A DNA stretch of 32,000 bases from an uncultured Clostridia bacterium. Its GTDB lineage: Bacteria > Bacillota > Clostridia > Christensenellales > Aristaeellaceae. Every line of letters starts with the position of its first letter. Position 1 is the first letter of the stretch. A program made the position numbers and the translations under genes. The DNA lies in contig CAKUFG010000004.1 of NCBI GenBank assembly GCA_934647235.1, forward strand, positions 9,580-41,579, read 5' to 3'. Of this stretch, positions 12,909 to 27,235 are shown one piece after another. The notes below the pieces were generated by a model. The model was not told the DNA's origin. It did not search any database and saw only the letters and a list, made by a program, of their open reading frames with translations.

Positions 12909-13763
12909 ATGGAAACCGTATATCGCGTGATGGATGCTCTGCTGCCCTTTGAGCTGTTCCGCTACGCCTTTATGAAAAACGCGCTGCTGGCGCTGCTGCT
13001 GCTGACCCCGCTGCTGGCGCTGCTGGGCACCATGGCGGTGAACAAGCGCATGGCCTTCTTCTCGGACGCGCTGGGTCACAGCGCGCTGGCCGGGCTGGGG
13101 CTGGGCGTGCTGCTGGGGCTCAGCAACGTAACGCTGATTCTGGTGCTGTTCGGCATCCTGTGGGCGGTGCTGATCACCCGCATCAACCGCACAGGCTCGG
13201 CCTCGTCGGATACCACCATCAGCGTGTTCTCCTCCGCCGGCATTGCGCTGGGATTATTGATCCTTTCCGGCAGCGGGCAATACAATAAATACTCCTCCAT
13301 CCTGGTAGGCGACGTGCTGGCCATCGCGCCCGCCGATATCCTGTGGCTGACCATCGCGCTGGCCGTGGGCGTGATCCTGTGGGCGGCGCTGTATAACCAG
13401 CTGCTGCTCACCGCCGTTAACCCGCAGCTGGCGCAGAGCCGCGGCATCGCCGTCAGATGGGTGGAATACGCCTTTGTCATCCTGGTGGCCGTGGCCGTCA
13501 TGCTCTCCATCCGCTGGGTGGGCGTGCTGCTGATCAACGCGCTGCTGATCCTGCCTGCCGCCGCTGCGCGCAACATTGCCCGCAGCGTTGCCCAGCATGC
13601 CCTGCTGAGCGTACTGATCTCGGTATTCAGCGGCGTGGCAGGGCTGTGCGTATCCGTGCCGCTTGGCTGCGGCGTGGGCGCGGCCGTGGTGCTGTGCGCC
13701 GCCGTGTGCTATGCCGTCAGCCTGCTGATTGGCCGCGCGCTGCGCGTGCATCTGCAAGCCTGA
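12909..13763 (+). CDS. metal ABC transporter permease (ZnuB/MntB-like ABC-3 family, 284 aa)
   Basis: FMKNALLA...LGTMAVNKRMAFFSDALGHSALAG is typical of ABC-3 permeases. The protein is hydrophobic throughout. Confidence 0.85.
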   Translation: METVYRVMDALLPFELFRYAFMKNALLALLLLTPLLALLGTMAVNKRMAFFSDALGHSALAGLGLGVLLGLSNVTLILVLFGILWAVLITRINRTGSASSDTTISVFSSAGIALGLLILSGSGQYNKYSSILVGDVLAIAPADILWLTIALAVGVILWAALYNQLLLTAVNPQLAQSRGIAVRWVEYAFVILVAVAVMLSIRWVGVLLINALLILPAAAARNIARSVAQHALLSVLISVFSGVAGLCVSVPLGCGVGAAVVLCAAVCYAVSLLIGRALRVHLQA

Positions 13764-13780
13764 ACAGCCGAGGTGCTTTG

Positions 13781-15550
13781 ATGAAGCTTTATCACGACTC
13801 CCGCTCGCTGGATTGCCGCGCACCCTTCGGCGCGGTTCGCTGCGGCGATATCGTCCGCCTGCGCGCCTATTGTCAGGGCGCGCCGCGCGCTGTCAACGCC
13901 GTCGTTACGGTCAATGGCCAGCCGCACACCATCCCCCTGCAGCCCGACGGCCGCGACGGCTACGAGCTGCGCTTTGCCGCGCCCGCCACACCATGCCTGC
14001 TGTGGTACTATTTTGCGGCGGTGATGGAGGATGGCCAGACCGAATACCTGGGCAACGCGCACGATGGCCTGGGCGGCGTGGGCGAGGTGTACGACTGCGT
14101 GCCCCCCGCCTTCCAGATCACCGTATACGCACGGGATTACGCGCCCCCTGCCTTCCTGCGCGAGGGCATTATGTATCAGATTTTCCCCGATCGCTTCTGC
14201 CGCAGCCGCGCGCCGTGGTATACGCGCGAGGATATCTATCTGCATGAAAACTGGGACGAGGCCCCGCTGGCGCTGTTTGATCCCCGCAACGGCGATACGC
14301 ACTCGCGGGATTTCTTCGGCGGCGATCTGCAGGGCATCATCTCCAAGCTCGATTACCTGCAATCGCTGCACGTTACCGTGCTTTATCTCAACCCCATCTT
14401 TCTGGCACGCAGCAATCACCGCTATGATACCGGCGATTATACCCGGATCGACCCCATGCTGGGCACGCAGGCGGATCTGACCCGCCTGTGCGAGGAAGCC
14501 GCCAAGCGCGGCATGCGCGTGCTGCTGGACGGCGTGTTCAGCCATACGGGCGACGACAGCCTGTATTTCAACCGCTATGGCCGCTATGACACCGTGGGCG
14601 CGTATCAGAGCCCCGATTCACCCTATGCAGGCTGGTTCACCTTTGAGCATTTTCCGGATAAGTACAAATGCTGGTGGGGCGTGGATACCCTGCCCGAGGT
14701 GAACAAGGAAAACGAGGATTATCGCCAGTTTATCCTGTCCGAGGATGGCGTGGCGCGCCGCTGGGTGCGCGCCGGCACATCGGGCTGGCGCCTGGATGTG
14801 GCGGACGAGCTGCCCATGCGCTTTCTGCGCGATCTGCGCACGGCCGTCCGGGCGCAGGATGCTCAGGCCGTCCTGCTGGGCGAGGTGTGGGAGGATGCGA
14901 GCAATAAGGTATCCTACGGCGCGCAGCGCTGCTACTGCCTGGGCGACACGCTGGACAGCGTGATGAATTATCCCCTGCGCGAAGCCGCCATCGGCTTTGT
15001 CACCGGCACGCTGGACGCCTATGCCTTCTGCCGCCGGGTAGAAAGCCTGCACGAAAACTATCCCCTGCCCTTCTTCTATTCGCTGATGAACCTGATGGGC
15101 AGTCATGACCGTGCGCGCCTGCTGAACGTGCTGGCCGGCGAAACCTGGGAGCAGGTGGATCCGCTGGAGCGCGGCGGCTGCCGCCTGAGCGATGCGCAGC
15201 GCGCGCTGGCCATCCGCCGCCTGGCCGAAATGTGGAAGCTTTACGCCGCCCTGCCCGGCATGCCCAGCGTCTATTACGGCGACGAGGCCGGCATGGAGGG
15301 CGCGGCCGATCCCTTCTGCCGCTTCCCCTATCCCTGGGGACACGAGGATGCGCAGATCATGGCCATCACCCGCGAGGCGCTGGCACTGCGCGCGTCCCGT
15401 CCCATCCTGCGGCGCGGCGCGCTGCAGCTGCACCCCATTGACCGCGATACCGTGCGCATCCGCCGCTTTGCCTATGCGGGCTGCGACGTATTCGGCGAGC
15501 CGCTGGACGACGCGGAATTTGAAATCAACGTGCACGCGATTCACGCCTAG
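13781..15550 (+). CDS. GH13 alpha-glycosidase, neopullulanase / cyclomaltodextrinase / maltogenic amylase-like (589 aa). No signal peptide.
   Basis: GH13 conserved regions DGVFSH, GWRLDVADE, GEVWE and MGSHD. The N-terminal beta domain begins MKLYHDS. Start ATG 13781 follows GAGGTG. The 108 codons upstream in the ORF track overlap the permease gene and are rejected. Confidence 0.9.
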   Translation: MKLYHDSRSLDCRAPFGAVRCGDIVRLRAYCQGAPRAVNAVVTVNGQPHTIPLQPDGRDGYELRFAAPATPCLLWYYFAAVMEDGQTEYLGNAHDGLGGVGEVYDCVPPAFQITVYARDYAPPAFLREGIMYQIFPDRFCRSRAPWYTREDIYLHENWDEAPLALFDPRNGDTHSRDFFGGDLQGIISKLDYLQSLHVTVLYLNPIFLARSNHRYDTGDYTRIDPMLGTQADLTRLCEEAAKRGMRVLLDGVFSHTGDDSLYFNRYGRYDTVGAYQSPDSPYAGWFTFEHFPDKYKCWWGVDTLPEVNKENEDYRQFILSEDGVARRWVRAGTSGWRLDVADELPMRFLRDLRTAVRAQDAQAVLLGEVWEDASNKVSYGAQRCYCLGDTLDSVMNYPLREAAIGFVTGTLDAYAFCRRVESLHENYPLPFFYSLMNLMGSHDRARLLNVLAGETWEQVDPLERGGCRLSDAQRALAIRRLAEMWKLYAALPGMPSVYYGDEAGMEGAADPFCRFPYPWGHEDAQIMAITREALALRASRPILRRGALQLHPIDRDTVRIRRFAYAGCDVFGEPLDDAEFEINVHAIHA

Positions 15551-15556
15551 TTTTAC

Positions 15557-15585
15557 TTGACATCCCTTTTTCTTTGCGCTAAGAT
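15557..15585 (+). promoter_or_regulatory. candidate sigma-A promoter upstream of the TIM-barrel gene
   Basis: Consensus TTGACA (15557-15562), 17-nt spacer, TAAGAT (15580-15585). Confidence 0.55.
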
Positions 15586-15607
15586 AACCTTATTGGAAAA
15601 CGGCAGG

Positions 15608-15650
15608 CTGCGCGGAGGGCTTCATCTCCCAGGCGCAGTTTCTGTTTTCT
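15608..15650 (+). terminator. terminator-like hairpin plus U-rich tract. It is either the GH13 operon terminator or a leader attenuator.
   Basis: CTGCGC (15608-15613) pairs with GCGCAG (15633-15638), with an inner GGAGG/TCTCC pairing. It is followed by TTTCTGTTTTCT (15639-15650). Confidence 0.45.
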
Positions 15651-15655
15651 GAAAA

Positions 15656-15671
15656 TTTGGAGCGGTCTAAA
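15656..15671. promoter_or_regulatory. operator O1 (palindrome copy) in front of the TIM-barrel gene
   Basis: TTTGGAGC|GGTCTAAA matches the TTTAGACC|GGTCTAAA consensus at 14 of 16 positions. It lies 19 nt upstream of the SD GGAGG (15691-15695). Confidence 0.55.
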
Positions 15672-15702
15672 TTACCCGTTTCACACTGAAGGAGGCATTT
15701 TG

Positions 15703-16524
15703 ATGCTGATTTCCACCAATTCCGGTCTTTACAGCGCCCGTCCCAACGATCTGCGCGTGCCCATGGCCGAGGCCATGGATTTCTTTGGCCGCATGGGCTT
15801 TGAGGCGGTGGACGTAAACTTTGCCGCCAGCATTTATGTGGAGCCTGAAAAGCATGAGCCCATCCTGGACGGCGATTGGCAGCAAAATCTGGATACCGTG
15901 CTGGCCGCCATCCGCCGCAATAACCTGGCGGTCTCCCACACCCACCTGCCCTTCTATAACTATGAGATGGAGGACAAGGAGCGCCTGGCCTTCTGCGATC
16001 AGATGACCTGCCGCGCCATCGACGCCTCGGCCTATATCGGCGCAAAGTACGCCGTCATCCACCCCCAGCGCGACGCCGAAAAGCACACGCTGGTTGACCG
16101 CACGGTGGCGCTGCTGACCCCCTTTAACGAGTACGCCAAGGCCCGCGGCGTAACCCTGTGCGTGGAAAACATGTATACCACCTATCCAGAGGAGCTGCGC
16201 GAGATTGTGGACCGCATGGCGTGCGGCGCATGCTGGGATGTGGGCCATGCCAATTTCGGCAAGCATCCGCAGTATGAAAGCATGACCCTGCTGGGCCAGC
16301 GCATCCGCGTGCTGCACCTGCATGATAACTACGGCACCCGCGACGACCACAGCATGCCCTACTTCGGCACCATCGATTGGGACGAAATCATGCGCGCGCT
16401 GCGCGATATCGGCTATGAGGGCACGTTCAACTATGAAGTCGCCGCCACGCACCTGCCCATGGCCCTGCGCGAGGATCACGCGCGCTATCTGGTGGACGCG
16501 GCCAAGCTGCTGCTTGGGCGCTGA
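15703..16524 (+). CDS. sugar phosphate isomerase/epimerase-type protein (xylose-isomerase-like TIM barrel, AP_endonuc_2 fold, 273 aa)
   Basis: Pattern AVIHP...CVENM...WDVGHAN...LHLHDN...GTIDWDEIMRALRDIGYEGTFNYE, which carries the metal ligands typical of this fold. GGAGG lies 7 nt before ATG 15703. Confidence 0.8.
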   Translation: MLISTNSGLYSARPNDLRVPMAEAMDFFGRMGFEAVDVNFAASIYVEPEKHEPILDGDWQQNLDTVLAAIRRNNLAVSHTHLPFYNYEMEDKERLAFCDQMTCRAIDASAYIGAKYAVIHPQRDAEKHTLVDRTVALLTPFNEYAKARGVTLCVENMYTTYPEELREIVDRMACGACWDVGHANFGKHPQYESMTLLGQRIRVLHLHDNYGTRDDHSMPYFGTIDWDEIMRALRDIGYEGTFNYEVAATHLPMALREDHARYLVDAAKLLLGR

Positions 16525-16551
16525 CGCCGCGCTGCATGTAGAAAAATTTCC

Positions 16552-16567
16552 TTTGTACCGGTTGAAA
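16552..16567. promoter_or_regulatory. operator O2 (degenerate palindrome copy) abutting the -35 of the lacI-family gene promoter
   Basis: TTTGTACC|GGTTGAAA matches the consensus at 12 of 16 positions. Its left half is the exact reverse complement of the right half of O4. Confidence 0.4.
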
Positions 16568-16573
16568 ATACAG

Positions 16574-16602
16574 TTGACAGCCGCGTCTTTCCGCGTTATA
16601 CT
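16574..16602 (+). promoter_or_regulatory. sigma-A promoter of the LacI-regulator / flavoprotein operon
   Basis: Consensus TTGACA (16574-16579), 17-nt spacer, TATACT (16597-16602). Confidence 0.7.
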
Positions 16603-16620
16603 GGCAATAGTTCAATCGTT

Positions 16621-16653
16621 ATTCCTTCCCAGTACAAGGGAATTTTATTTTCA
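16621..16653 (+). terminator. weak terminator-like hairpin plus T-tract inside the predicted leader
   Basis: ATTCCTT (16621-16627) pairs with AAGGGAAT, 5-7 bp depending on register. It is followed by TTTTATTTT (16643-16651). Confidence 0.3.
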
Positions 16654-16658
16654 GGCAA

Positions 16659-16674
16659 TTTAGATCGGTCTAAA
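16659..16674. promoter_or_regulatory. operator O3 (best palindrome copy) between the promoter and the SD of the LacI gene
   Basis: TTTAGATC|GGTCTAAA is one mismatch from a perfect 16-bp palindrome. Its centre is 107 bp from the centre of O2. Confidence 0.6.
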
Positions 16675-16697
16675 AGCTCAAGGGAGGCTGCGCGCAC

Positions 16698-17729
16698 ATG
16701 ATCACCATCCGCGAAATCGCCGCCATCGCAGGCGTTTCCCGCAGCACGGTGTCGCTGGTGCTCAACAACAGTCCCCTGGTCAAGGCCGAAACGCGCGAAA
16801 AGGTGCTGGCCGTCATTCAGGATACCGGCTATGTGCCCAACAGCAACGCCCGCAACCTCAGCTGGCGCGCCACCAAGTGCCTGGGCATCGTCATCCTTTC
16901 CGATCAGAAGCGCTCCGCCAGCTATGATTATTCGCAGTCGGTGGGTCTGTTTTCGCTCAACGTAATGCAGGGGCTGATTGACCGCCTGGCCGACAGCGAA
17001 TACAGCGTGATCATTGAGTATTTTCTGCCCAGCGCCGCTCCCGGCGCGCCGCAGCTGCCCAAGCTCCTGCGCGAGCGCAAGGTGGACGGCGTGTTCCTGC
17101 TGGGCGGCTTTCTGGACGGCCATCTGCTGCCGGACTGCCTGGCCACGGGCATCCCGCTGGTGGCGGTGGGCATCGACTCGCCCTCTACCCTGTGCGACTG
17201 CGTGATTTCCAACCTGGAGGGCGGCACCTATGACGCGCTGATGGCGCTTTATCAGCGCGGCCGCCGCCAGATCGGCCTGATGAACTGCCCGCACACCTTC
17301 CTGTCCGCGCAGCCGCGCCTGCGCGCCATGCAGCGCTTCTGCCGCGATACGGGCACGCCCTTCCAGCCGGATATGGTGCTCTACGGCCAGCACAACAACG
17401 GCGAAAGCGCCTGCCAGGCGCTGCGCGAAAGCTGGCAGGCGGGCCGCCGTTTCGATGGGCTGGTGGGTGCTAACCCCCAGGCCGCCTTGGGTGCGATGCG
17501 CTTTCTGTACGAGACGGGTCTGCGCGTGCCGCAGGACGTTTCCATCATCTCCTACGAGGATAATTCCCTGTGCGGCTACGCCACGCCGCCGCTGACGGCC
17601 GTTAACATCCGCCAGGACGCCATGGGCGCGCAGGCGGCGGAGATGATGCTTTCCCGCCTGGCCGATCCCAAGCAGCCCATGCGCTCCATCGTGGTGCCTT
17701 CCTATATGGTTGAGCGCGAAAGCGTTTAA
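16698..17729 (+). CDS. LacI-family transcriptional regulator (343 aa)
   Basis: N-terminal HTH ITIREIAAIAGVSRSTVSLVLNN...YVPNSNARNL, followed by a periplasmic-binding-protein-like sugar-sensor domain. AAGGGAGG at 16680-16687. Confidence 0.9.
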   Translation: MITIREIAAIAGVSRSTVSLVLNNSPLVKAETREKVLAVIQDTGYVPNSNARNLSWRATKCLGIVILSDQKRSASYDYSQSVGLFSLNVMQGLIDRLADSEYSVIIEYFLPSAAPGAPQLPKLLRERKVDGVFLLGGFLDGHLLPDCLATGIPLVAVGIDSPSTLCDCVISNLEGGTYDALMALYQRGRRQIGLMNCPHTFLSAQPRLRAMQRFCRDTGTPFQPDMVLYGQHNNGESACQALRESWQAGRRFDGLVGANPQAALGAMRFLYETGLRVPQDVSIISYEDNSLCGYATPPLTAVNIRQDAMGAQAAEMMLSRLADPKQPMRSIVVPSYMVERESV

Positions 17730-17763
17730 CATAAAAAACCCGATCTTTTTCTTATTTTTAATT

Positions 17764-17779
17764 TTTAGACCGGTACAAA
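17764..17779. promoter_or_regulatory. operator O4 (palindrome copy) in front of flavoprotein gene 1
   Basis: TTTAGACC|GGTACAAA matches the consensus at 14 of 16 positions. It sits in an AT-rich spacer 8 nt upstream of the SD AAAGGAG. Confidence 0.55.
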
Positions 17780-17804: not shown

Positions 17805-19118
17805 ATGATTTCCGCTACTGTTCCCTCTTTGCAGTTTGATGTGCTTGTGGTGGGCGGCGGCCCGGCGGGCGTTGGCGCGGCGGTTGCCGCAGCGCGCATG
17901 GGCGCACGCACCGTCCTTCTGGAGCGCGGCGGCCTGCTGGGCGGCATGCTCACCGCCGGACAGGTACAGCCCATCCTGGGCAATGTCGCCCCAGGCAGCT
18001 TTTATGATGAAATCGTCGCCCTGCTGGCCGAGGGCCATGAGGATGTGCCGCTGACCGCCACGCGCAACGGGCGCGAAATCCACGTGGATGTGGAAGAGGC
18101 CAAGGAGCGCCTGCTGCGCCTGACGCACGAAAGCGGCGTGGAGATCTTCCTGCACACCCCGGTGGTGGAGGTGCTCAAGGACGGCTCCCGCGTGACGGGC
18201 GTGCTGGCAGGCACGGCGCTGGGCCTGCAGGAGTTGCACGCCAGCGTGGTCATCGACGCGACGGGCGACGGCTTTGCCGCGATGCGCGCGGGCGCGCAGT
18301 ATCACATCGGCCGCGAGCAGGATGGCCGCTGCCAGCCTGTAACCATCGAGTTTCTGGTCGATCATCTGGATGAAAGCCGGGCGCTGTCCTGCTTTGGCGG
18401 CAGCGATCCCGTCACCCTGCCCGACGGCAAAAAATACAGCCGGCTGTGCCGCGAGTGCTGTGAGCGCGGCGAGCTGCCCCAGAACGTATCCATCGTGCGC
18501 CTGCACAAAACCTTCTATCCCGGCGAGCGCAATGTGAACGCCACCCAGGCAAACGGCCTGGATATCCTGACCCCCAGGGACGAGGTAACAGCCGAGCTGA
18601 CCCTGCGCGCGCAGATTGACAGGATCGTCGCTTTCCTGCGCAAGTATGTGCCCGGCTATGAAAACTGCCGCGTCAAGTCCTCCGCCGCCACGCTGGGCGT
18701 GCGCGAGACGCGCCGTATCGAGGGCCTGCGCCGCATCGAGGATATCGATGTGGAAACAGGCACGCGCTGTCCCGACGTGGTGGTGCACAAGGCATGGTTC
18801 CTGATCGATATCCACAATCCCGCGGGCGGCGGCCAGGCCGAGGGGCACTCCCAGCCCGCCATTCCCTATGATATCCCCTACGGCGCGCTGGTTCCGCGCG
18901 GCGTGGACGGCATGCTGACCGCCGGGCGCTGCATCAGCGGCACGCACCGCGCGCACGCATCCTACCGCGTGATGGCCATCTGCCTGGCTACGGGTCAGGC
19001 GGCGGGCACGGCAGCGGCGCTGTGCGCCAGGCGCGGGGAGCTGCCGCGCGAGCTGGATTATCATCTGGTGCAGGATGCGCTGCAAAAGGCGGGCTGCACG
19101 CTGTTTGACCAGGAATAA
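17805..19118 (+). CDS. FAD-dependent oxidoreductase, FAD_oxidored (PF12831)-like, paralogue 1 (437 aa)
   Basis: N-terminal dinucleotide fold DVLVVGGGPAGVGAAVAAARMGARTVLLERGGLLGG, IDATGDG, LGVRETRRIEG, and the C-terminal AGRCISGTH...YRVM...TGQAAGTAAA. No signal peptide. Confidence 0.8.
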   Translation: MISATVPSLQFDVLVVGGGPAGVGAAVAAARMGARTVLLERGGLLGGMLTAGQVQPILGNVAPGSFYDEIVALLAEGHEDVPLTATRNGREIHVDVEEAKERLLRLTHESGVEIFLHTPVVEVLKDGSRVTGVLAGTALGLQELHASVVIDATGDGFAAMRAGAQYHIGREQDGRCQPVTIEFLVDHLDESRALSCFGGSDPVTLPDGKKYSRLCRECCERGELPQNVSIVRLHKTFYPGERNVNATQANGLDILTPRDEVTAELTLRAQIDRIVAFLRKYVPGYENCRVKSSAATLGVRETRRIEGLRRIEDIDVETGTRCPDVVVHKAWFLIDIHNPAGGGQAEGHSQPAIPYDIPYGALVPRGVDGMLTAGRCISGTHRAHASYRVMAICLATGQAAGTAAALCARRGELPRELDYHLVQDALQKAGCTLFDQE

Positions 19119-19137
19119 ACAAGGGGAGGAACCGAGC

Positions 19138-20520
19138 ATGTACAATTTTTCCTGTGCGCTGGATGAAAGCTACGCCGCGCAGGTGACGGTAGTGGGCGGC
19201 GGCCCGGCAGGCGTATGCGCCGCCATTGCGGCCGCGCGCAGCGGCGCCAAAACCCTGCTGATTGAAAGCGGCAACTGCCTGGGCGGCATGGCGACGCTGG
19301 GGCAGGTCAATCCTTTTATGACCTGCTATGACAAGGATGGCGACAATATGATCATCCGCGGCCTGTTCAAGGAGATCGTCGATCGCCTGGTCGTCCGCGG
19401 CGCGGCCATCGACCCTGGCGAGGTGCCCGCAGGCTCGGCCTTTACCTCCTATATCATCGTCGGCCACAAGCATGTCACCCCCTTTGACGCAGAAACGCTC
19501 AAGGTGGTGCTGGATGAAATGTGCTGCGAGGCCGGGGTGCAGGTGCTGTTCCACAGCACGTTCGTATCCCCTGTGATGGAGGAAAACCGCCTGACCGGCC
19601 TGGTCATCATGACCAAGGGCGGGCTGAAGCTGGTAAAGAGCGATATCGTAATCGACTGCACGGGCGACGCGGACGTTGCCTATCGCAGCGGCGTGCCCTG
19701 CGAGATGGGCGATGAGGCCAGCGGCCGCATCCAGCCGGTGACGATGTTCTTCCGCATCGGCAATGTGGATTCCGCCAGGGTGGAGGCCGATATCGATGCG
19801 AACCGCAATAACTTTTACCGCAAGGACGGCGTAAACTACCGCTCCTTCCACTGGCGGGTGGCCCAGGCCCGCGCCAATGGCGACTGGGATTTGCAGCGCG
19901 TATCCATCGGCATGTTCCGCGGCGTGCGCGAGGATGAGTGGAACATCAACACCTCCCGCATCATGGGCGTGGACGCCACCGATCCCGATCAGCTGTCCCG
20001 CGCCGAAATGGAAGGCCGCGAGCAGGTGCAGCAGATTTTCCGCTTTCTCAAAAAATACGTGCCCGGCTGCGAAAACGCCGTGCTGATGAGCACGCCCGCG
20101 CACATCGGCGTGCGCGAAACGCGGCACATCAAGGGCGAATATATCCTGACCACCGACGATGTGCTGCACGGCGTGCTCTTTGACGACAGCATCCTGCTGG
20201 CCGCCAACTCCATCGATGTGCACGGGCGCTTCGGCCCGATGAGCAACGAATACGTCACGGTGGAAAACGGCGAGTACTACGGCGTGCCCTACCGCTGCCT
20301 TGTGCCCCTGAAGGTGGAAAACCTGCTGGTGGCCGGGCGCAGCGTATCGGCCACTTCCGAGGCCGCCGGGGCCATCCGCGTGATGCCCCCCTGCATGGCG
20401 CTGGGGCAGGCGGCGGGCACAGCCGCCGCGCAGGCTGTCGCCGCGCATATCTCCCCCCGGCAGATCGACGTACAGGCCCTGCGCCATACCCTGCGCGAGC
20501 AGGGCGCATTCCTGGGCTGA
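19138..20520 (+). CDS. FAD-dependent oxidoreductase, FAD_oxidored (PF12831)-like, paralogue 2 (460 aa)
   Basis: VTVVGGGPAGVCAAIAAARSGAKTLLIESGNCLGG, IDCTGDADV, IGVRETRHIKG, AGRSVSATS...IRVM...LGQAAGTAAA. Start ATG 19138 follows AAGGGGAGGA. Confidence 0.8.
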   Translation: MYNFSCALDESYAAQVTVVGGGPAGVCAAIAAARSGAKTLLIESGNCLGGMATLGQVNPFMTCYDKDGDNMIIRGLFKEIVDRLVVRGAAIDPGEVPAGSAFTSYIIVGHKHVTPFDAETLKVVLDEMCCEAGVQVLFHSTFVSPVMEENRLTGLVIMTKGGLKLVKSDIVIDCTGDADVAYRSGVPCEMGDEASGRIQPVTMFFRIGNVDSARVEADIDANRNNFYRKDGVNYRSFHWRVAQARANGDWDLQRVSIGMFRGVREDEWNINTSRIMGVDATDPDQLSRAEMEGREQVQQIFRFLKKYVPGCENAVLMSTPAHIGVRETRHIKGEYILTTDDVLHGVLFDDSILLAANSIDVHGRFGPMSNEYVTVENGEYYGVPYRCLVPLKVENLLVAGRSVSATSEAAGAIRVMPPCMALGQAAGTAAAQAVAAHISPRQIDVQALRHTLREQGAFLG

Positions 20521-20532
20521 CTGATGCAGAAT

Positions 20533-20553
20533 GGTAAACGCCACGGCGTTTCC
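20533..20553 (+). other. small intercistronic hairpin (no T-tract)
   Basis: AAACGC (20536-20541) pairs with GCGTTT (20546-20551), with flanking GG/CC pairs. It lies between flavoprotein 2 and the binding-protein gene. Confidence 0.3.
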
Positions 20554-20580
20554 AAAATATAAAAGAAAGAGGTACCCCAC

Positions 20581-21936
20581 ATGAAAAAGGCACTCGCTTT
20601 CCTGACCGCGCTGGTGCTGCTGCTGTGCGCCCTCCCCATGGCCATGGCCGATGAGCAGCCCGACATCACCTCCTGGATCCTGTCCAAGGATCCCGCCGCC
20701 GTCACCGGCACCGTGCGCTTCTGGATTCCCTTCAAGGGCTCCCAGGGCATGGACGACATGATCGCCGAGTTCAACCAGACCTACCCCAACGTCAAGATCG
20801 AGCTGACCACCTACAACAACAACTCTGACGGCAACCTGGCCGTCAACGCCGCCCTGATGAGCGGTGAAATCGACGTGCTGGCCTCCTTCGGCCTGGCCAA
20901 CGCCTATCAGCGCTGGGAAAACGGCCTGTACATGGAGCTGACCGACTACATCGAAAAGTACAACATCAACCTGGTAGACAACTGGGGCACCGATGTGTAC
21001 AAGTACGAGGATACCTACTACACCTTCCCCTGCGGCGGCCTGAGCTACTATGTTTCCATTAACATGAACGATTGGAACGAAGCGGGCCTGGGCGAGCTGC
21101 CCACCGAGTGGACGTGGGATGAGTATCTGGCTGCCAGCGCCGCCATGACCAAGAAGGACGAAGCGGGCAACACCGTGCTGTACGGCGGCTCCGACTACCA
21201 CAGCGTCAACTACTTCACCTATGTATGGTATCAGGTAAACGGCCACGACCAGTACTACGGCGCGGACGGCCTGTCCAACTTCACCGATCCCCTGATCGTC
21301 AACGCCCTCAAGCGCGAGATCAAGGCCGAAGTGGAGGACAAGATCTGGTATCCCCTCGAGGTGTACCGCAACGATAACATCCAGACCCAGGACGTGTTCA
21401 TGGGCCACACCGTAGCCTCCGCCATCAGCCCCAACATGGTGCGCTTCATCCGCGATACCGAAAAGTATCCCACCCAGTGGATCACCGGTTTCGCCCCCTG
21501 GCCGGTAGAGGAAAAGGGCCAGACCAACTATATGGCGGGCGTATCCAACTTCTCCCATGCCGGCATCGCCGCCAACTGCGCCGATGAAGAGGCTGCCTGG
21601 TACTGGCTGGCCTGGTATTCCACCTACGGCTCCCGCTACCTGATCTGCGCCGGCCATCAGTCCTCCTGGAAGGGCACCGATACCAACGCGCTGGTCGATC
21701 TGGTATTCGGCAGCGAAGAAAACGCCCAGAAGCTGGTGGACGTGGAATCCTTCAAGCGCGTGGTTGTCAACTATGACAATCCTCCCTACACCGACACCAT
21801 CCTGACCGCCTACTCCGATGTGAACAAGGCGATCAACGAGTACACCCGCTATGCGCACCAGGGCCTGATGACCGCCGAGGAAGCCATGGCCCAGGCCAAG
21901 CAGGTTGCCGACGAAGCCATCAAGAACGCTGACTGA
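20581..21936 (+). CDS. extracellular solute-binding protein of a CUT1-type carbohydrate ABC importer (451 aa)
   Basis: Signal peptide MKKALAFLTALVLLLCALPMAMA. Family-1 binding-protein size and composition (aromatic/acidic rich). Followed by two MalFG-type permeases. Confidence 0.85.
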   Translation: MKKALAFLTALVLLLCALPMAMADEQPDITSWILSKDPAAVTGTVRFWIPFKGSQGMDDMIAEFNQTYPNVKIELTTYNNNSDGNLAVNAALMSGEIDVLASFGLANAYQRWENGLYMELTDYIEKYNINLVDNWGTDVYKYEDTYYTFPCGGLSYYVSINMNDWNEAGLGELPTEWTWDEYLAASAAMTKKDEAGNTVLYGGSDYHSVNYFTYVWYQVNGHDQYYGADGLSNFTDPLIVNALKREIKAEVEDKIWYPLEVYRNDNIQTQDVFMGHTVASAISPNMVRFIRDTEKYPTQWITGFAPWPVEEKGQTNYMAGVSNFSHAGIAANCADEEAAWYWLAWYSTYGSRYLICAGHQSSWKGTDTNALVDLVFGSEENAQKLVDVESFKRVVVNYDNPPYTDTILTAYSDVNKAINEYTRYAHQGLMTAEEAMAQAKQVADEAIKNAD

Positions 21937-21937
21937 T

Positions 21938-22000
21938 TTCAATCCCTGGGCGGATTGAAGCAACACAGCGCCCTCCCGCCTCGCCAAGGGGCGGGAGGGC
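21938..22000 (+). other. two consecutive intercistronic stem-loops after the binding-protein gene
   Basis: Hairpin 1: TTCAATCC (21938-21945) pairs with GGATTGAA (21952-21959). Hairpin 2: GCCCTCCCGCC (21970-21980) pairs with GGCGGGAGGGC (21990-22000), a perfect 11-bp GC stem. No T-tract follows. Confidence 0.5.
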
Positions 22001-22021
22001 CATAGAAATGAGGAAAACACC

Positions 22022-22951
22022 ATGTCCAACCCTGATCTGGCAGCCCGCAAGCGGCTGACAAGGCGCACCAGCGCCCTGCAGCGGCAGGAAACCCTCATCG
22101 GATATGCCTTCATCCTGCCCGCGCTGATTGTATTTCTGGTCTTCGTGGCCTTCCCCTTCTTCGCCTCCATCGGCCTGTCCTTTACCAAGTGGAATTTCCT
22201 GGGCGGCTGGAAAAAGCTCAAGTGGGTCGGCCTGCAGAACTTTGCCAACCTGGCCAAGGATCGCCGCTTCGGCCAGGCCTTTGCCAACACGTTCATCTAT
22301 TCCATCGCCACCGTGCCCACCTCCATCCTGCTGGCGCTGGTGCTGGCCTATATTCTCAACAACAAGGTCTATTGCAGAAAGCTGCTGCGCATGGCCTTCT
22401 TCATCCCCTACATCTCCAGCGCTGTGGCGCTGGCCGCCGTGTTCAAGTTCATGTTCCGCGACGACGGCGTGATCAACTCCATCCTGCTGGCGCTGGGCGT
22501 AAAGAACCCGCCGCAATGGTTTGTAAGCCTGCAATTGAACAAAATTCCCATCATCGTGATGGTCATCTGGACGGCCGTGGGCTATGAGCTGGTCATCTAC
22601 ATGTCCGCGCTGCAAAGCGTGCCCACCAGCCTGTACGAGGCCGCCGATATCGACCAGGCCAACGGCGTGCAGAAGTTCTTCTACATCACGCTGCCTATGG
22701 TGTCCCCCACCACCTTCTATCTGGTCATCGTGCGTATGATCGCCGTGTTCAAAATCTTCTCCTCCGTCAACATCATGACCATGGGCTCCACCTCCTACGC
22801 CAACACCTCCATGGTGGTGGAAATCTACAGCAACGCCTTTGGCAGCTACAAGTTTGGCTATGCCGCGGCGCAGTCCATGGTGCTGTTCGTGCTTATTCTC
22901 GTCATTACCCTGCTCAACTTCTGGGGACAGAAGAAGTGGGTTCATTATTAA
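22022..22951 (+). CDS. sugar ABC transporter permease (MalF-like, 309 aa)
   Basis: EAA loop YEAADIDQANGVQKFFYITLP; six-helix hydrophobic profile. Confidence 0.9.
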   Translation: MSNPDLAARKRLTRRTSALQRQETLIGYAFILPALIVFLVFVAFPFFASIGLSFTKWNFLGGWKKLKWVGLQNFANLAKDRRFGQAFANTFIYSIATVPTSILLALVLAYILNNKVYCRKLLRMAFFIPYISSAVALAAVFKFMFRDDGVINSILLALGVKNPPQWFVSLQLNKIPIIVMVIWTAVGYELVIYMSALQSVPTSLYEAADIDQANGVQKFFYITLPMVSPTTFYLVIVRMIAVFKIFSSVNIMTMGSTSYANTSMVVEIYSNAFGSYKFGYAAAQSMVLFVLILVITLLNFWGQKKWVHY

Positions 22952-22968
22952 AGAAAGGAGAACGCCCC

Positions 22969-23802
22969 ATGAAAAAGAATGAAAGAGCGGCCGCCATCGT
23001 GCGCACTATCGTCGTATCGCTCATCGCCGTGTTGTTTGTCGTTCCGCTGGTATGGATGGTGCTCTCCTCGCTCAAAACCGCGCCGGAGGTATTCGCCCGG
23101 CCCTTCCACTGGCTGCCCGCCAAGGCCCAGTGGCAAAACTACGCCACCGTGTGGATGAACGAAGAGGCCTCCATGCTGCGCGCCTTTGCCAACACGCTGT
23201 ATATCGCGCTGTTCAGCATCGTCGGGCAGATGCTCATCTCCTCTCTGGCGGCCTATTCCTTTGCCAAGATCAATTTCAAGGGCAAGCAGATCGTATTCAT
23301 GCTGTTCCTGTCCTCCATGATGGTGCCCAGCCAGCTGACCATCATCCCCCGCTTTATGCTGTTCAAGACCATCGGCCTGTACAACAACCTGTGGGCCATC
23401 ATCCTGCCCGCCTTCTTTGGCGCCACGTCCATCTTCATGCTGCGGCAGTTCTATATGGGATTGCCCAACGATCTGATCGAAGCCGCCAAGATCGACGGCG
23501 CGGGACATCTGCGCATTTTCCTGCGCATCATGCTGCCGCTGACCAAGGCCGCGCTGATGTCGCTGATCATCCTCACCTTCATCAGCAGCTGGAACGAATA
23601 TATGGCTCCGTTGATTTTCCTGGTCAAGAAGGAATTGTACACCGTATCGCAGAATATCCAGTGGTACATGCTCGATGAATTCAAGGAGCATAACCTCACC
23701 ATGGCCGCCGCCACCAGCGCCATCGTGCCGGTCGTGATCCTGTTTATCGTTGGGCAAAAATACTTTGTTGAAGGTATCGCCACCTCCGGCGTAAAGGGCT
23801 AA
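22969..23802 (+). CDS. sugar ABC transporter permease (MalG-like, 277 aa)
   Basis: EAA loop IEAAKIDGAGHLRIFLRIMLP. Start ATG 22969 follows AAAGGAGAA. Confidence 0.9.
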   Translation: MKKNERAAAIVRTIVVSLIAVLFVVPLVWMVLSSLKTAPEVFARPFHWLPAKAQWQNYATVWMNEEASMLRAFANTLYIALFSIVGQMLISSLAAYSFAKINFKGKQIVFMLFLSSMMVPSQLTIIPRFMLFKTIGLYNNLWAIILPAFFGATSIFMLRQFYMGLPNDLIEAAKIDGAGHLRIFLRIMLPLTKAALMSLIILTFISSWNEYMAPLIFLVKKELYTVSQNIQWYMLDEFKEHNLTMAAATSAIVPVVILFIVGQKYFVEGIATSGVKG

Positions 23803-23811
23803 GCACTTTTT

Positions 23812-25479
23812 ATGAAACAAACCTATACCATCGGCGTTGATTTTGGCACCCAGTCCGCCCGCGCCGTGCTGTGCCGCGTATCCGACGGCGCGGTGCTGGC
23901 GCAATCCGAGCACCCCTATGCCCACGGCGTAATGTCCGATCGTCTGCCCTGCGGCACGCCCCTGCCCCCCGATTATGCCCTGCAGCACCCACAGGATTTT
24001 CTGGACGCCCTGCACGCTGCCGTGCACGGCATACTGGAGCAGTCCGATATCGACCGCGCGGATATCATCGGCATGGGCATGGATTTTACCTGCAGCACGC
24101 CCATGCCCATGGGCAAGGGCGGCGTGCCGTTGTGCTTTGATCCTAAATTCGAACGCAATCCGCACGCCTATATCAAGCTATGGAAGCACCATGCCGCGCA
24201 GTGGGAAGCCGCGCGGCTGACCGAGCTGATGCGCGAGCACGACCCGGACCTGCTCGCCCACGTGGGCGGCAGGCTGTCCGCCGAGGCGTTTTTCTCCAAG
24301 GTATGGCAGGTGCTGCGCGAAGCGCCCGATGTGTTTGACGCGGCCGACCGCTTTCTGGAGGTGGGCGACTGGCTGACCCAGCAGCTCACCGGCAATGAAA
24401 ACCTGGCCTGCTCGCTGGCCGCGCATAAGGCGCAGTACCGCGAGGGCATTGGCTATCCGCCGATGCTGCAATACGCCGATCCGCGCCTGGCCGGCATGAT
24501 CGGCGCCAAGGTGCGCGGCAAGCTCATCGATATCGGCGCGGTCAGCGGATATCTGACGCAGCAGCGGGCCGCCTGGCTGGGCCTGCCTGCGGGCATCATC
24601 GTCACCGCCCCGCATCCCGACGCCATGGCTTCCCTGCCCGCGCTGGGCATCGCAGGTCCCGGCCCCGCCGCGCTGGCAGCCGGCACGTCCTCCGCCATGA
24701 TCCTGTGCCACTCTAAATTCCTGCCTGTGGAGGGCACCACCAGCATCATGCCCAACAACACCCTGCCCGGCCTGTACGGCTATGCCTCCGGCCAGGCGGC
24801 CTTCGGCGACCTGCTGGGCTGGTTTGTCAACCGCTGCGCGCCCGAGGAGGTATTCCGCGCCGCGCAGGCTGCGCACATCTCCGCGCATGAGGAGCTTTCC
24901 CGCCGCGCCGCGCTGCTGCGTCCCGGCGAAAGCGGGCTGATCTGCCTGGACTGGTGGAACGGCAACCGTTCCTGCCTGGCTGATATGCGCCTGAGCGGCA
25001 TGCTGCTGGGCATGACGCTGCAAACCCGGCCCGAGGAGATTTACCGCGCGCTGATGGAGGGACTGGGCTTTGGCCTGCGCTGCATCATCGATTCGCACGA
25101 GCGCGCGGGCGTACCCGTCCCCGCCCTGCATGTCAGCGGCGGCATCTCCTATAAGAATCCCGTGTTCATGCAGCTGCTGAGCAATATTCTTCAGCGCCCG
25201 CTCTACATTTCCAAGCCCCTGCCTACCCCGGCCGTGGGCATGGCCATCCTGTCCGCCTGCGCGGCGGGCGCGCAGAAGGGCGGCTACGATCAATTGGCCG
25301 AGGCTGCCGCGCGCATGAGCTGCCTGAGCGATATCAGCTATCAGCCCGACGCCAGCCAGGCCGCTGCCTACGACGCGCTGTATCAGGAATATATGACCCT
25401 GCACGATTATTTTGGCCGGGGCGCCAACGATGTGATGAAACGGCTGCGCGAGCTCTCCGCCGCCGCGAAGGAACAATAA
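23812..25479 (+). CDS. araB: FGGY-family carbohydrate kinase, ribulokinase (AraB)-like (555 aa)
   Basis: The N-terminus YTIGVDFGTQSARAVL...LPPDYALQHPQDFLDAL...IIGMGMDFTCSTP follows the AraB pattern I know from Bacillus (YTIGVDFGTLSGRAVL...LPRDWALQHPADY...IGIDFTACT). The length is typical of ribulokinases. The physiological substrate is uncertain because araA and araD are absent. Confidence 0.75.
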   Translation: MKQTYTIGVDFGTQSARAVLCRVSDGAVLAQSEHPYAHGVMSDRLPCGTPLPPDYALQHPQDFLDALHAAVHGILEQSDIDRADIIGMGMDFTCSTPMPMGKGGVPLCFDPKFERNPHAYIKLWKHHAAQWEAARLTELMREHDPDLLAHVGGRLSAEAFFSKVWQVLREAPDVFDAADRFLEVGDWLTQQLTGNENLACSLAAHKAQYREGIGYPPMLQYADPRLAGMIGAKVRGKLIDIGAVSGYLTQQRAAWLGLPAGIIVTAPHPDAMASLPALGIAGPGPAALAAGTSSAMILCHSKFLPVEGTTSIMPNNTLPGLYGYASGQAAFGDLLGWFVNRCAPEEVFRAAQAAHISAHEELSRRAALLRPGESGLICLDWWNGNRSCLADMRLSGMLLGMTLQTRPEEIYRALMEGLGFGLRCIIDSHERAGVPVPALHVSGGISYKNPVFMQLLSNILQRPLYISKPLPTPAVGMAILSACAAGAQKGGYDQLAEAAARMSCLSDISYQPDASQAAAYDALYQEYMTLHDYFGRGANDVMKRLRELSAAAKEQ

Positions 25480-25480
25480 T

Positions 25481-27235
25481 ATGCTTAATTTGAATAACGC
25501 CATCCGCCATCAGGCCGATATCTGCGTGATCGGCGGCGGCATGTCCGGCATGATCGCCGCCATTTCCGCCGCGCGCCACGGGGCCAGGGTGGTGCTGATG
25601 CACGACCGTCCTGTGCTTGGCGGCAACGCCAGCAGCGAGATCCGCATGTGGATCCGCGGCGCGGCTGGCAAGGAAAACCGTGAGGCGGGGATCCTGCAGG
25701 AGCTCGAGCTGGAAAACATCTACCGCAACCCCACCATGAACTATTCCATCTGGGACAGCGTGCTGCTGCAGGCCGTGACGGCGGAAAAGAACATCACCCT
25801 GCTGCTCAACTGCTCCTGTCTGGATTGCCAGACCGCAGGCAGCCGCATCACGTCCGTCACCGGCTGGCAGCTGAATACCTACGCCTTCCACACTGTGGAA
25901 GCGCAGCTCTTTCTGGATTGCTCGGGCGACAGCATCCTGGCCCCGCTGTGCGGCGCTGCGTACCGCGTGGGCCGCGAGGGGCAAAGCGATCTGGGCGAAT
26001 CCGAGGCTCCCGCGCAGGCTGACCGCAAAACAATGGGCAATTCCTGCCTGATCGAGGCCCGGCAGACCGATCATCCCTGCCCGTTCATTCCGCCCAAGTG
26101 GGCGAACGTTTACCCCGATGACGCCAGCATGATGGACAAGAACCATGATTTCATCGGCACGGGCGTGAACTTCTGGTGGATTGAGCTGGGCGGCGAGCAG
26201 GATACCATTGCCGACACGCAAACGCTGAACATGGAGCTGCTCAAAATCGCCTTTGGCGTGTGGGATCATATCAAAAACCGCGGCGATCACGGCGCGGATA
26301 ACTGGGAGCTGGAATGGGTGGGCTTCCTGCCCGGCAAGCGCGAAAGCCGCCGCTACGAGGGCGACTATATGCTCACCCAGCAGGATCTGTCCACCGGCCG
26401 TCCCTTCCCCGATGTGGTGGCCTACGGCGGCTGGACGATGGACAATCACCTGCCTGCGGGCTTTTACGCGCCGGGCTACTCCTCGCACCATCTGCCCGTC
26501 AACGCGCCCTATCCTATCCCCTATCGCTGCCTGTACTCGCGCAATATCGATAACCTGATGTTCGCCGGGCGCAACATCAGCGCCTCGCACCTGGCCATGA
26601 GCTCCACGCGCGTGATGGCCACCTGCTCGCTGATGGGCCAGGCTGCCGGCACCGCCGCCGCGCTGGCCGTGGAAAAGGCGTGCGATCCGCGCGGCATTTA
26701 TCAGGATCATATGGCCGAGCTGCAGCGCCGCCTGATGGACGACGGCTGCTACCTGCCCGGCCTTACGCGCAGCCCCGTGCCGGTGCAGATCGATCTGCCG
26801 CCCGAGCAGCTGGCCATTCTGCAAAACGGCTGGGAGCGCCCGCATGCGGGCGTTGAAAACCGCATTCTGCTGCCCGCAGGCACGCGGCTGACCATCATCC
26901 TGCCCGCCCCCGCGCACCGTCAGGCGCTGCGGCTGGCGCTGGACCCTGATTTTTCGCGGGAGAGCATTTCCCCGCGTAAAAAGTATCAGGACTTTGCCAT
27001 GCGCACGCATGTGTTTGCGGACGATCCGCCGCTGCAGCTGCCCGCCCCGCTGCTGCGCGAGGCTGCCCTGATCTGCGAAATGCCGGACGGCCCCACGGTC
27101 ATAAAGCTCCGCCCCCACCAGGCGCTGCTGCATATTCCCCTGCCGGAGGGCGCATCCCGCCTTACCCTGTGCCTGGAATCCGCCTGGGGCGGCGGCGATA
27201 TCGGCCTGTATGGCTGCGAAATCACAGACGCTTAA
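25481..27235 (+). CDS. FAD-dependent oxidoreductase, long FAD_oxidored (PF12831)-like form with a C-terminal extension (584 aa)
   Basis: ADICVIGGGMSGMIAAISAARHGARVVLMHDRPVLGGNASSE, LDCSGDS, GKRESRRYEG, AGRNISASH...TRVM...MGQAAGTAAA, then about 150 further residues. The start is 1 nt after the kinase stop. Confidence 0.8.
   Translation: MLNLNNAIRHQADICVIGGGMSGMIAAISAARHGARVVLMHDRPVLGGNASSEIRMWIRGAAGKENREAGILQELELENIYRNPTMNYSIWDSVLLQAVTAEKNITLLLNCSCLDCQTAGSRITSVTGWQLNTYAFHTVEAQLFLDCSGDSILAPLCGAAYRVGREGQSDLGESEAPAQADRKTMGNSCLIEARQTDHPCPFIPPKWANVYPDDASMMDKNHDFIGTGVNFWWIELGGEQDTIADTQTLNMELLKIAFGVWDHIKNRGDHGADNWELEWVGFLPGKRESRRYEGDYMLTQQDLSTGRPFPDVVAYGGWTMDNHLPAGFYAPGYSSHHLPVNAPYPIPYRCLYSRNIDNLMFAGRNISASHLAMSSTRVMATCSLMGQAAGTAAALAVEKACDPRGIYQDHMAELQRRLMDDGCYLPGLTRSPVPVQIDLPPEQLAILQNGWERPHAGVENRILLPAGTRLTIILPAPAHRQALRLALDPDFSRESISPRKKYQDFAMRTHVFADDPPLQLPAPLLREAALICEMPDGPTVIKLRPHQALLHIPLPEGASRLTLCLESAWGGGDIGLYGCEITDA

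Follow-up and report, generated by a model that had tools for sequence, protein, structure and literature searches.

A CG-centred palindrome as the predicted operator of a local LacI-family regulon in uncultured gut Clostridia

Results

The locus and its regulator

We consider here a 32,000-nucleotide stretch of DNA from an uncultured Clostridia bacterium (Christensenellales, Aristaeellaceae; contig CAKUFG010000004.1 of assembly GCA_934647235.1, positions 9,580 to 41,579), hereafter the window, in which four 16-bp palindromes, O1 to O4, are distributed among a gene for a TIM-barrel enzyme, a gene for a LacI-family regulator (lacI) and a series of flavoprotein, transporter and kinase genes (Table 1). 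An earlier note on this DNA had read the palindromes as operators of the adjacent LacI/GalR-family regulator, a reading that, on comparative sequence evidence, we believe is very probably correct. The genes from flavoprotein 1 through flavoprotein 3 constitute a predicted regulated operon (17805..27235, + strand), which ends there, since a convergent gene comes next. The open reading frame called mechanically for flavoprotein 2 starts at 19075, overlapping flavoprotein 1; the real start is the ATG at 19138, because homologues are ~460 amino acids long and begin MYNFSC.

Table 1. Predicted operators, genes and transcription signals of the locus, in order along the window
Feature	Position	Strand	Sequence or assignment	Remark
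GH13 enzyme gene	13457-15550	+		upstream of TIM-barrel gene
TIM-leader promoter-like site	15557..15585	+	TTGACA, 17-nt spacer, TAAGAT	10/12 consensus positions
Terminator-like element	15597..15652	+	A-tract, hairpin, U-tract	between promoter and O1; fold z-score -3.1
O1	15656-15671		TTTGGAGCGGTCTAAA	strong predicted operator; TIM 5' leader, 31 nt upstream of TIM-barrel ATG
TIM-barrel gene	ATG 15703..16524	+	xylose-isomerase-like fold, AP_endonuc_2 (Pfam 2.4e-30)	predicted regulon member
O2	16552-16567		TTTGTACCGGTTGAAA	weak or auxiliary predicted operator; 6 bp upstream of lacI -35 hexamer
lacI promoter-like site	16574..16602	+	TTGACA, 17-nt spacer, TATACT	11/12 consensus positions; conserved in orthologous loci L001, L004
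O3	16659-16674		TTTAGATCGGTCTAAA	strong predicted operator; lacI leader, 23 nt upstream of ATG, ~+50 to +65 from inferred transcription start
LacI-family regulator, 343 aa	16698..17729	+	LacI helix-turn-helix and Peripla_BP_3 (Pfam)	
O4	17764-17779		TTTAGACCGGTACAAA	strong predicted operator; 25 nt upstream of flavoprotein 1
Flavoprotein 1	17805-19118	+	PF12831, FAD (Pfam)	
Flavoprotein 2	19138-20520	+	PF12831, FAD (Pfam)	start corrected
ABC sugar-binding protein	20581-21936	+	Pfam, NCBIfam	
Two permeases	22022-23802	+	Pfam, NCBIfam	
Ribulokinase-like FGGY kinase	23812-25479	+	NCBIfam	ribulokinase equivalog cut-off passed, 527 vs 428 bits
Flavoprotein 3	25481-27235	+	PF12831 (Pfam)	

The regulator aligns over its full length with the structures of PurR, CcpA and LacI, and from end to end with PurR, a dimeric protein. 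Residues 3-48 match the LacI-type helix-turn-helix (PF00356, 3.5e-17), the C-terminal effector domain is periplasmic-binding-protein-like (matches to PF13377 and PF00532), and Leu54, in the motif NARNLS, aligns with Leu54 of PurR and is invariant in 26 aligned orthologues, as is the recognition helix AGVSRSTVSLVLN among orthologues. By its N-terminal domain, its effector domain and its hinge leucine, the protein can thus be assigned from its sequence to the LacI/GalR family of transcription factors. Its stop codon falls at the equivalent of residue 326 of the 360 in LacI and residue 330 of the 340 in PurR, with no C-terminal extension, and the alignment with these two proteins shows the LacI-type C-terminal tetramerisation helix to be absent.

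The palindromes in the window

The four sequences and coordinates of the earlier note are all exact in the window, and all four are even 16-bp palindromes with a central CG, as expected of LacI-family operators (16-22 bp). With up to 3 mismatches, the consensus of that note, TTTAGACCGGTCTAAA, has 3 matches in 32 kb, where 0.01 is expected from dinucleotide-preserving shuffles; O2 differs from it at 4 positions. A symmetric matrix scan of the window gives 21-25 bits for the four sites, against 11 for the next best position, and in leave-one-out scans every omitted site ranks first among ~32,000 positions. A matrix built from the sites of other species only gives 25.5 bits for O3, 25.1 for O1, 21.3 for O4, 12.9 for O2 and 2.0 for the position that follows; among shuffle maxima the 95th percentile lies at 12.8 bits, about equal to the score of O2. 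Chance is ruled out for O1, O3 and O4, and the window thus holds three strong sites and one marginal one.

It is scarcely credible, in our estimation, that the four palindromes regulate nothing and arose by chance or as relics of a dispersed repeat. Intergenic regions here are A+T-rich in a genome of 62% G+C, and the motif ends in runs of T and A, just as such an origin would have it. The shuffle statistics argue the other way, as do the conserved position of the sites before orthologous genes in more than 20 species and the lack of any further copy in the window, where the matrix scan of all 32 kb found no fifth site.

Conservation across species

The regulator was aligned with 25 homologues, and the alignment was used to scan one genome per species. 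Loci L001-L022 carry orthologues (83-40% identity) and belong to uncultured Clostridia from the guts of humans, rabbits, chickens and ruminants; the 58 loci L023-L080 carry LacI paralogues of at most 31% identity and serve as the control set. The 22 orthologous loci retain the regulator, the flavoproteins, the binding protein, the permeases, the FGGY kinase and the third flavoprotein, in the same order, and the paralogue loci have no PF12831-type flavoproteins of that cluster. Scanned with the matrix derived from the window, 21 of the 22 orthologous loci show between one and seven sites each, and the controls show almost none. At 17 bits or more there are 41 sites in orthologous loci (313 kb) and 6 in paralogue loci (736 kb), and at 18 bits or more 34 and 1; were sites of 17 bits or more as frequent there as in the paralogue loci, the orthologous loci would be expected to hold 2.6 (Poisson p ~1e-34). 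The motif is therefore not equally frequent in paralogue loci, and the proposal that it is the operator of the adjacent regulator is strengthened by its tracking of the orthologues and near-absence from the 58 paralogue loci. When CG-centred 16-mers with 7 or more of their 8 pairs symmetric were sought without regard to the motif, this site family emerged again, but only in orthologous loci; the paralogue loci yielded other LacI-type palindromes, such as TGGAAACGTTTCCA.

The control matches are themselves informative. Five of the six at 17 bits or more adjoin paralogues with AGVSRSTVSLV[IL]N as their common recognition helix, in Eisenbacteria and an unclassified metagenome-assembled genome, which again links the motif with this DNA-binding domain; from these sequences, the helix and the motif seem to travel together across phyla. 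Loci L024, L029, L038 and L050 encode LacI paralogues of ~30% identity with the helix AGVSRSTVSLVIN, have TTTGGAGCGGTCCAAC-type sites alongside and lack flavoprotein genes.

The same evidence bears on a second alternative, that the sites belong to another regulator, for example the global catabolite regulator CcpA. Catabolite-responsive element (cre) sites are likewise CG-centred palindromes of the LacI-family type. However, the 14-bp cores of the present sites mismatch the cre consensus TGWAANCGNTNWCA at 4 of its 10 specified positions (2, 3, 4 and 13 of the 14-mer), and the motif tracks the orthologues of this regulator and is absent from related Clostridia sugar loci with other LacI paralogues. 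We thus regard an assignment to CcpA or a similar regulator as most improbable, and continue to attribute the sites to the adjacent LacI-family protein.

Across the orthologues, 40 unique sites give the consensus TTTRGAnC|GnTCYAAA, in which the central C and G are 100% conserved, position 7 is variable and the flanks show A/T-richness only. Thus, of the fixed palindrome form in the earlier note, the central CG stands (40/40 unique sites) and the CCGG centre does not. Its recurrent half-site variants are present locally, but the GGTACAAA half-site, like the CCGG centre, is a local variant and no part of the cross-species consensus. With few exceptions the sites are intergenic, 0-200 bp ahead of lacI, flavoprotein (including divergent flavoprotein), binding-protein or TIM genes, and most of the distant orthologues keep an O3-like site 0-35 bp before lacI.

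Phylogenetic footprinting, the check that the earlier note had called for, gives a concordant picture, in that the sites are conserved islands in intergenic alignments. Before the TIM gene, an 18-bp block, ATTTGGAGCGGTCTAAAT, is invariant in three species against a mean column identity of 69%; after lacI, in an alignment of four species, the O4 block is the sole conserved island besides the ribosome-binding site; and in front of lacI, both L001 and L004 retain O2 and the promoter, with O2 identical in L001. O3 is kept in L004, and its right half is deleted in L001, the closest species. A further abundant gut relative shows the same layout, including a perfect TTTGGACCGGTCCAAA.

Variation within the species

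Scanning metagenomes with the TIM protein as query yielded more than 12 human-gut contigs of the same species, in which the regulator is 99-100% and the TIM protein 96-97% identical. All four sites are kept at unchanged spacing, and the changes that do occur affect degenerate positions: some contigs read TTTAGATC at O3 and others TTTGGAAC, while O4 has GGTACAAA, GGTGCAAA or GGTATAAA as its right half.

O2, O3 and the lacI promoter

The presence of sites upstream of lacI in orthologous loci, where they are common, supports the autoregulation suggested in the earlier note. The arrangement of these sites was misdescribed in one detail, since O2 does not touch the -35 element; it ends 6 bp upstream of the hexamer (16574-16579). 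In L004, the positional analogue of O2 abuts that locus's own -35.

The distance of 107 bp between the centres of O2 and O3 was correctly given, and from it came the proposal of a loop, in which repressor at O2 (about -49) and repressor at O3 (about +58) would share one face of the DNA and enclose the lacI promoter, as LacI does between its O1 and O3 or GalR between OE and OI. The two sites do flank the promoter-like site, 107 bp amounts to 10.2 helical turns, and in 11 conspecific contigs O2 is identical and the spacing unchanged. The geometry also recalls the gal operators, 113 bp apart, at which GalR loops although it has no tetramerisation helix. At the same time, the helical-phase argument finds no support among the relatives. 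The O2/O3-type pair of L004 is 58 bp apart (5.5 turns, opposite faces), O3 is lost in L001, and 16 site pairs in relatives lie 26-280 bp apart with no phase preference (Rayleigh p ~0.18 for a 10.5-bp period); moreover, O2 is weak and the regulator lacks the LacI-type tetramerisation helix. We therefore consider the loop unlikely.

Just upstream of O3, the lacI leader also contains, at 16626-16652, a small hairpin followed by a T-run (TTCCCAGTACAAGGGAA TTTTATTTTC), a weak structure (fold z-score +0.6) that is conserved in neither L001 nor L004.

The TIM-barrel gene and its leader

Orthologues of the TIM-barrel enzyme are found only in the nearest lineages, namely the window species, L001-L004, L095/96 and L097, with 69-82% identity in L001-L004 and L095-L097. 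A strong site precedes the gene by ~40 bp in five of the seven TIM-bearing lineages, and an equivalent of O1 is present in L095-L097. In L002 and L004 the TIM gene follows a GH13 gene by ~35 bp with no site between. The TIM gene is followed directly by flavoprotein gene 1 in L003, L096 and L097; in L002 an operator and a promoter intervene. The co-regulation of the TIM gene put forward earlier is thus borne out by the five lineages with a site but not by L002 and L004. A functional tie between the TIM-barrel enzyme and the flavoprotein operon is supported by this comparative evidence, including the adjacency to flavoprotein gene 1 in four lineages, and predicted membership of the TIM gene in the regulon is lineage-specific.

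A GH13 gene precedes the TIM gene in all seven lineages, in none of them with an operator of its own, and probably shares a transcript with it in two. In one conspecific contig (L086) a different GH13 gene and an extra LacI paralogue lie upstream.

The TIM leader has a composite layout. The promoter-like site lies directly after the GH13 stop codon, and its -35 and -10 hexamers are kept in L001, L003, L095 and L097. O1 comes 5 bp after the terminator-like element, which is a strong one, and the ribosome-binding site then follows. This order of promoter, A-tract/hairpin/U-tract, operator and ribosome-binding site is common to five lineages, with stems that differ in sequence, and the hairpin layout recurs in L001, L003, L095, L097 and the conspecific strains. 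The hairpin resembles a terminator of the upstream GH13 gene, yet sits downstream of a conserved promoter.

Two further candidate features were rejected. Second promoters overlapping O1, O3 or O4 (TTTTCW, 17 nt, TAAAWK) are poor matches whose -10 is lost in L003, and were not retained as main promoters. A fixed hairpin-to-operator spacing fails as a general feature of the sites, many of which lack a hairpin upstream, and U-rich tails are wanting; only in the TIM leader is the layout consistent. Elsewhere, the spacer between flavoprotein 2 and the binding-protein gene (20521-20580) contains a small conserved hairpin, AAACGC/GCGTTT at ~20536-20551, that L001 also has; more distant relatives have an operator in its place, for example TTTGGACCGGTCCAAA in L104. 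No known RNA family was detected anywhere in the window by Rfam.

The regulated enzymes

The three PF12831 flavoproteins belong, on sequence and structural searches, to what is a very large and highly conserved family without a functional name or a close solved structure. Flavoprotein 2 has at least 7,888 homologues at E <=1e-20, the best 120 of which are 62-96% identical, and these are named only "FAD-dependent oxidoreductase" or "hypothetical protein"; some from other phyla (Kiritimatiellae-like genomes) carry twin-arginine translocation (Tat) signals. PDB sequence searches with flavoproteins 2 and 3 returned matches only to the flavin adenine dinucleotide (FAD)-binding N-terminus of other flavoproteins. 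A flavoprotein model is confident (predicted local distance difference test score, pLDDT, 90.8; predicted template modelling score, pTM, 0.92), and Foldseek matches it to geranylgeranyl-reductase-like proteins, flavin halogenases/monooxygenases and fumarate reductases with template modelling (TM) scores of only 0.33-0.47; these matches reflect the generic FAD fold. PDB searches with the TIM and binding proteins gave distant or uncharacterised relatives only, none pointing to a substrate, and a literature search on PF12831, FAD_oxidored and the gene combination found nothing functional.

Some clues come from gene content. The module comprises 2-4 PF12831 flavoenzymes, an ATP-binding cassette (ABC) importer and a ribulokinase-like kinase, together with, depending on the lineage, the TIM-barrel enzyme, SGNH esterases and polyol dehydrogenases. 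Additional genes in related loci encode SGNH esterases, a mannitol-dehydrogenase-family enzyme, a short-chain dehydrogenase/reductase, a zinc-dependent alcohol dehydrogenase and a PfkB kinase. These additions hint at an acylated glycoside or a polyol-yielding compound as the substrate. In the window, no AraA- or AraD-type gene lies near the FGGY kinase despite its passing the ribulokinase cut-off, and the operon has no ABC ATPase gene.

Discussion

Overall, the comparative evidence points to a typical autoregulated, local LacI-family regulon, and what it predicts is an ordinary bacterial gene switch. Among 1303 LacI-family regulators, 1251 have even palindromes and 1173 a central CG; more than 75% of their sites fall between -140 and -30, and autoregulation is seen in over three quarters of the local regulators (PMC4052901). 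The present system matches this norm in its even palindromes, their central CG, the position of its sites and its predicted autoregulation.

A general pathway can be outlined from what is established for the family. A repressor dimer would sit on each 16-bp palindrome, its two recognition helices each contacting one TTTRGA half-site and its hinge helices, including Leu54, inserted at the central CG. Binding at O3, O4 and O1 would block initiation or elongation, with O2, upstream of the -35, as a weaker auxiliary site. A sugar- or polyol-derived effector, either imported by the operon's ABC transporter or made from its cargo, would then release the repressor, inducing the TIM-barrel enzyme, the repressor itself (negative autoregulation) and the flavoprotein/transporter/kinase operon.

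Several observations weigh against this account. Among conspecific contigs, polymorphism at the sites is not significantly lower than in the rest of the intergenic DNA (6/64 versus 53/336 variable positions, p = 0.25). Locus L021, for all its orthology, has no strong site. O2 is marginal under the other-species matrix (12.9 bits), though it is the fourth best position in the window. There is no convincing promoter between lacI and O4, and O1 lies downstream of a terminator-like hairpin, which clouds the route of transcription into the TIM gene. Finally, the scan of this genome covered the 32-kb window, which does not fix the size of the regulon.

Regardless of these points, the motif TTTRGAnCGnTCYAAA and its regulator together offer a regulon definition with which a recurrent gene cluster of uncultured gut and rumen Clostridia might be annotated, one that would link the TIM-barrel enzyme, the uncharacterised flavoproteins, the ABC importer and the ribulokinase-like kinase functionally. 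It is conceivable, although we hold it only tentatively, that the operators mark a conserved, uncharacterised catabolic module, whose new glycoside- or polyol-type substrate would be the effector and whose flavoenzyme chemistry would be absent from solved structures. In a variant of this idea, repressor bound a few bp after the terminator-like hairpin of the TIM leader is proposed to cooperate with intrinsic termination. The purified repressor might itself serve as a biosensor, in that a compound releasing it from O3 or O4 would identify the pathway substrate.

Comparison with known systems

Among known systems, CcpA and its cre sites offer the same CG-centred pseudo-palindrome bound by a LacI-family dimer, and a roadblock at a leader site is known for CcpA; in contrast to the present system, the cre consensus differs, and CcpA is global rather than local and depends on the corepressor HPr-Ser-P. 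GalR of E. coli is likewise a LacI/GalR-family dimer without a tetramerisation helix, and its two operators, OE and OI, flank a promoter ~110 bp apart. Looping at gal requires HU and correct phasing. Here, by contrast, neither spacing nor phase is conserved, the closest species lacks one site of the pair, and an HU-dependent, GalR-like loop, although conceivable, has nothing in its support.

The CebR/CelR repressors of Actinobacteria (box TGGGAGCGCTCCCA; PMC5332605) provide the same local LacI-family repression of an ABC sugar importer and catabolic genes, and their inner core, GGAGCGCTCC, equals the core of variants found here, such as the TTTGGAGCGCTCCAAA-type sites. The outer positions differ (TTT/AAA here), as do the phylum and the targets, and the CebR/CelR recognition helix, judged by the best PDB match, a LacI-family protein, reads VGRGTVSRVIN against VSRSTVSLVLN here.

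There is also a likeness in layout to the local LacI-family sugar regulons of RegPrecise type, reconstructed by comparative genomics (Ravcheev et al. 2014, PMC4052901), which have the same 16-bp even palindrome with central CG, sites mostly 30-140 bp before start codons and an autoregulated regulator beside transporter and catabolic genes, all as here. As far as our searches show, there is no earlier description of this orthologous group of regulators, which comes from uncultured Clostridia of gut and rumen, or of its motif, TTTRGAnCGnTCYAAA. What sets the present system apart from the RegPrecise-type regulons is its predicted targets, PF12831 flavoproteins of no assigned function; the repressor-operator system itself is textbook, and any novelty lies in the enzymes that it would control.

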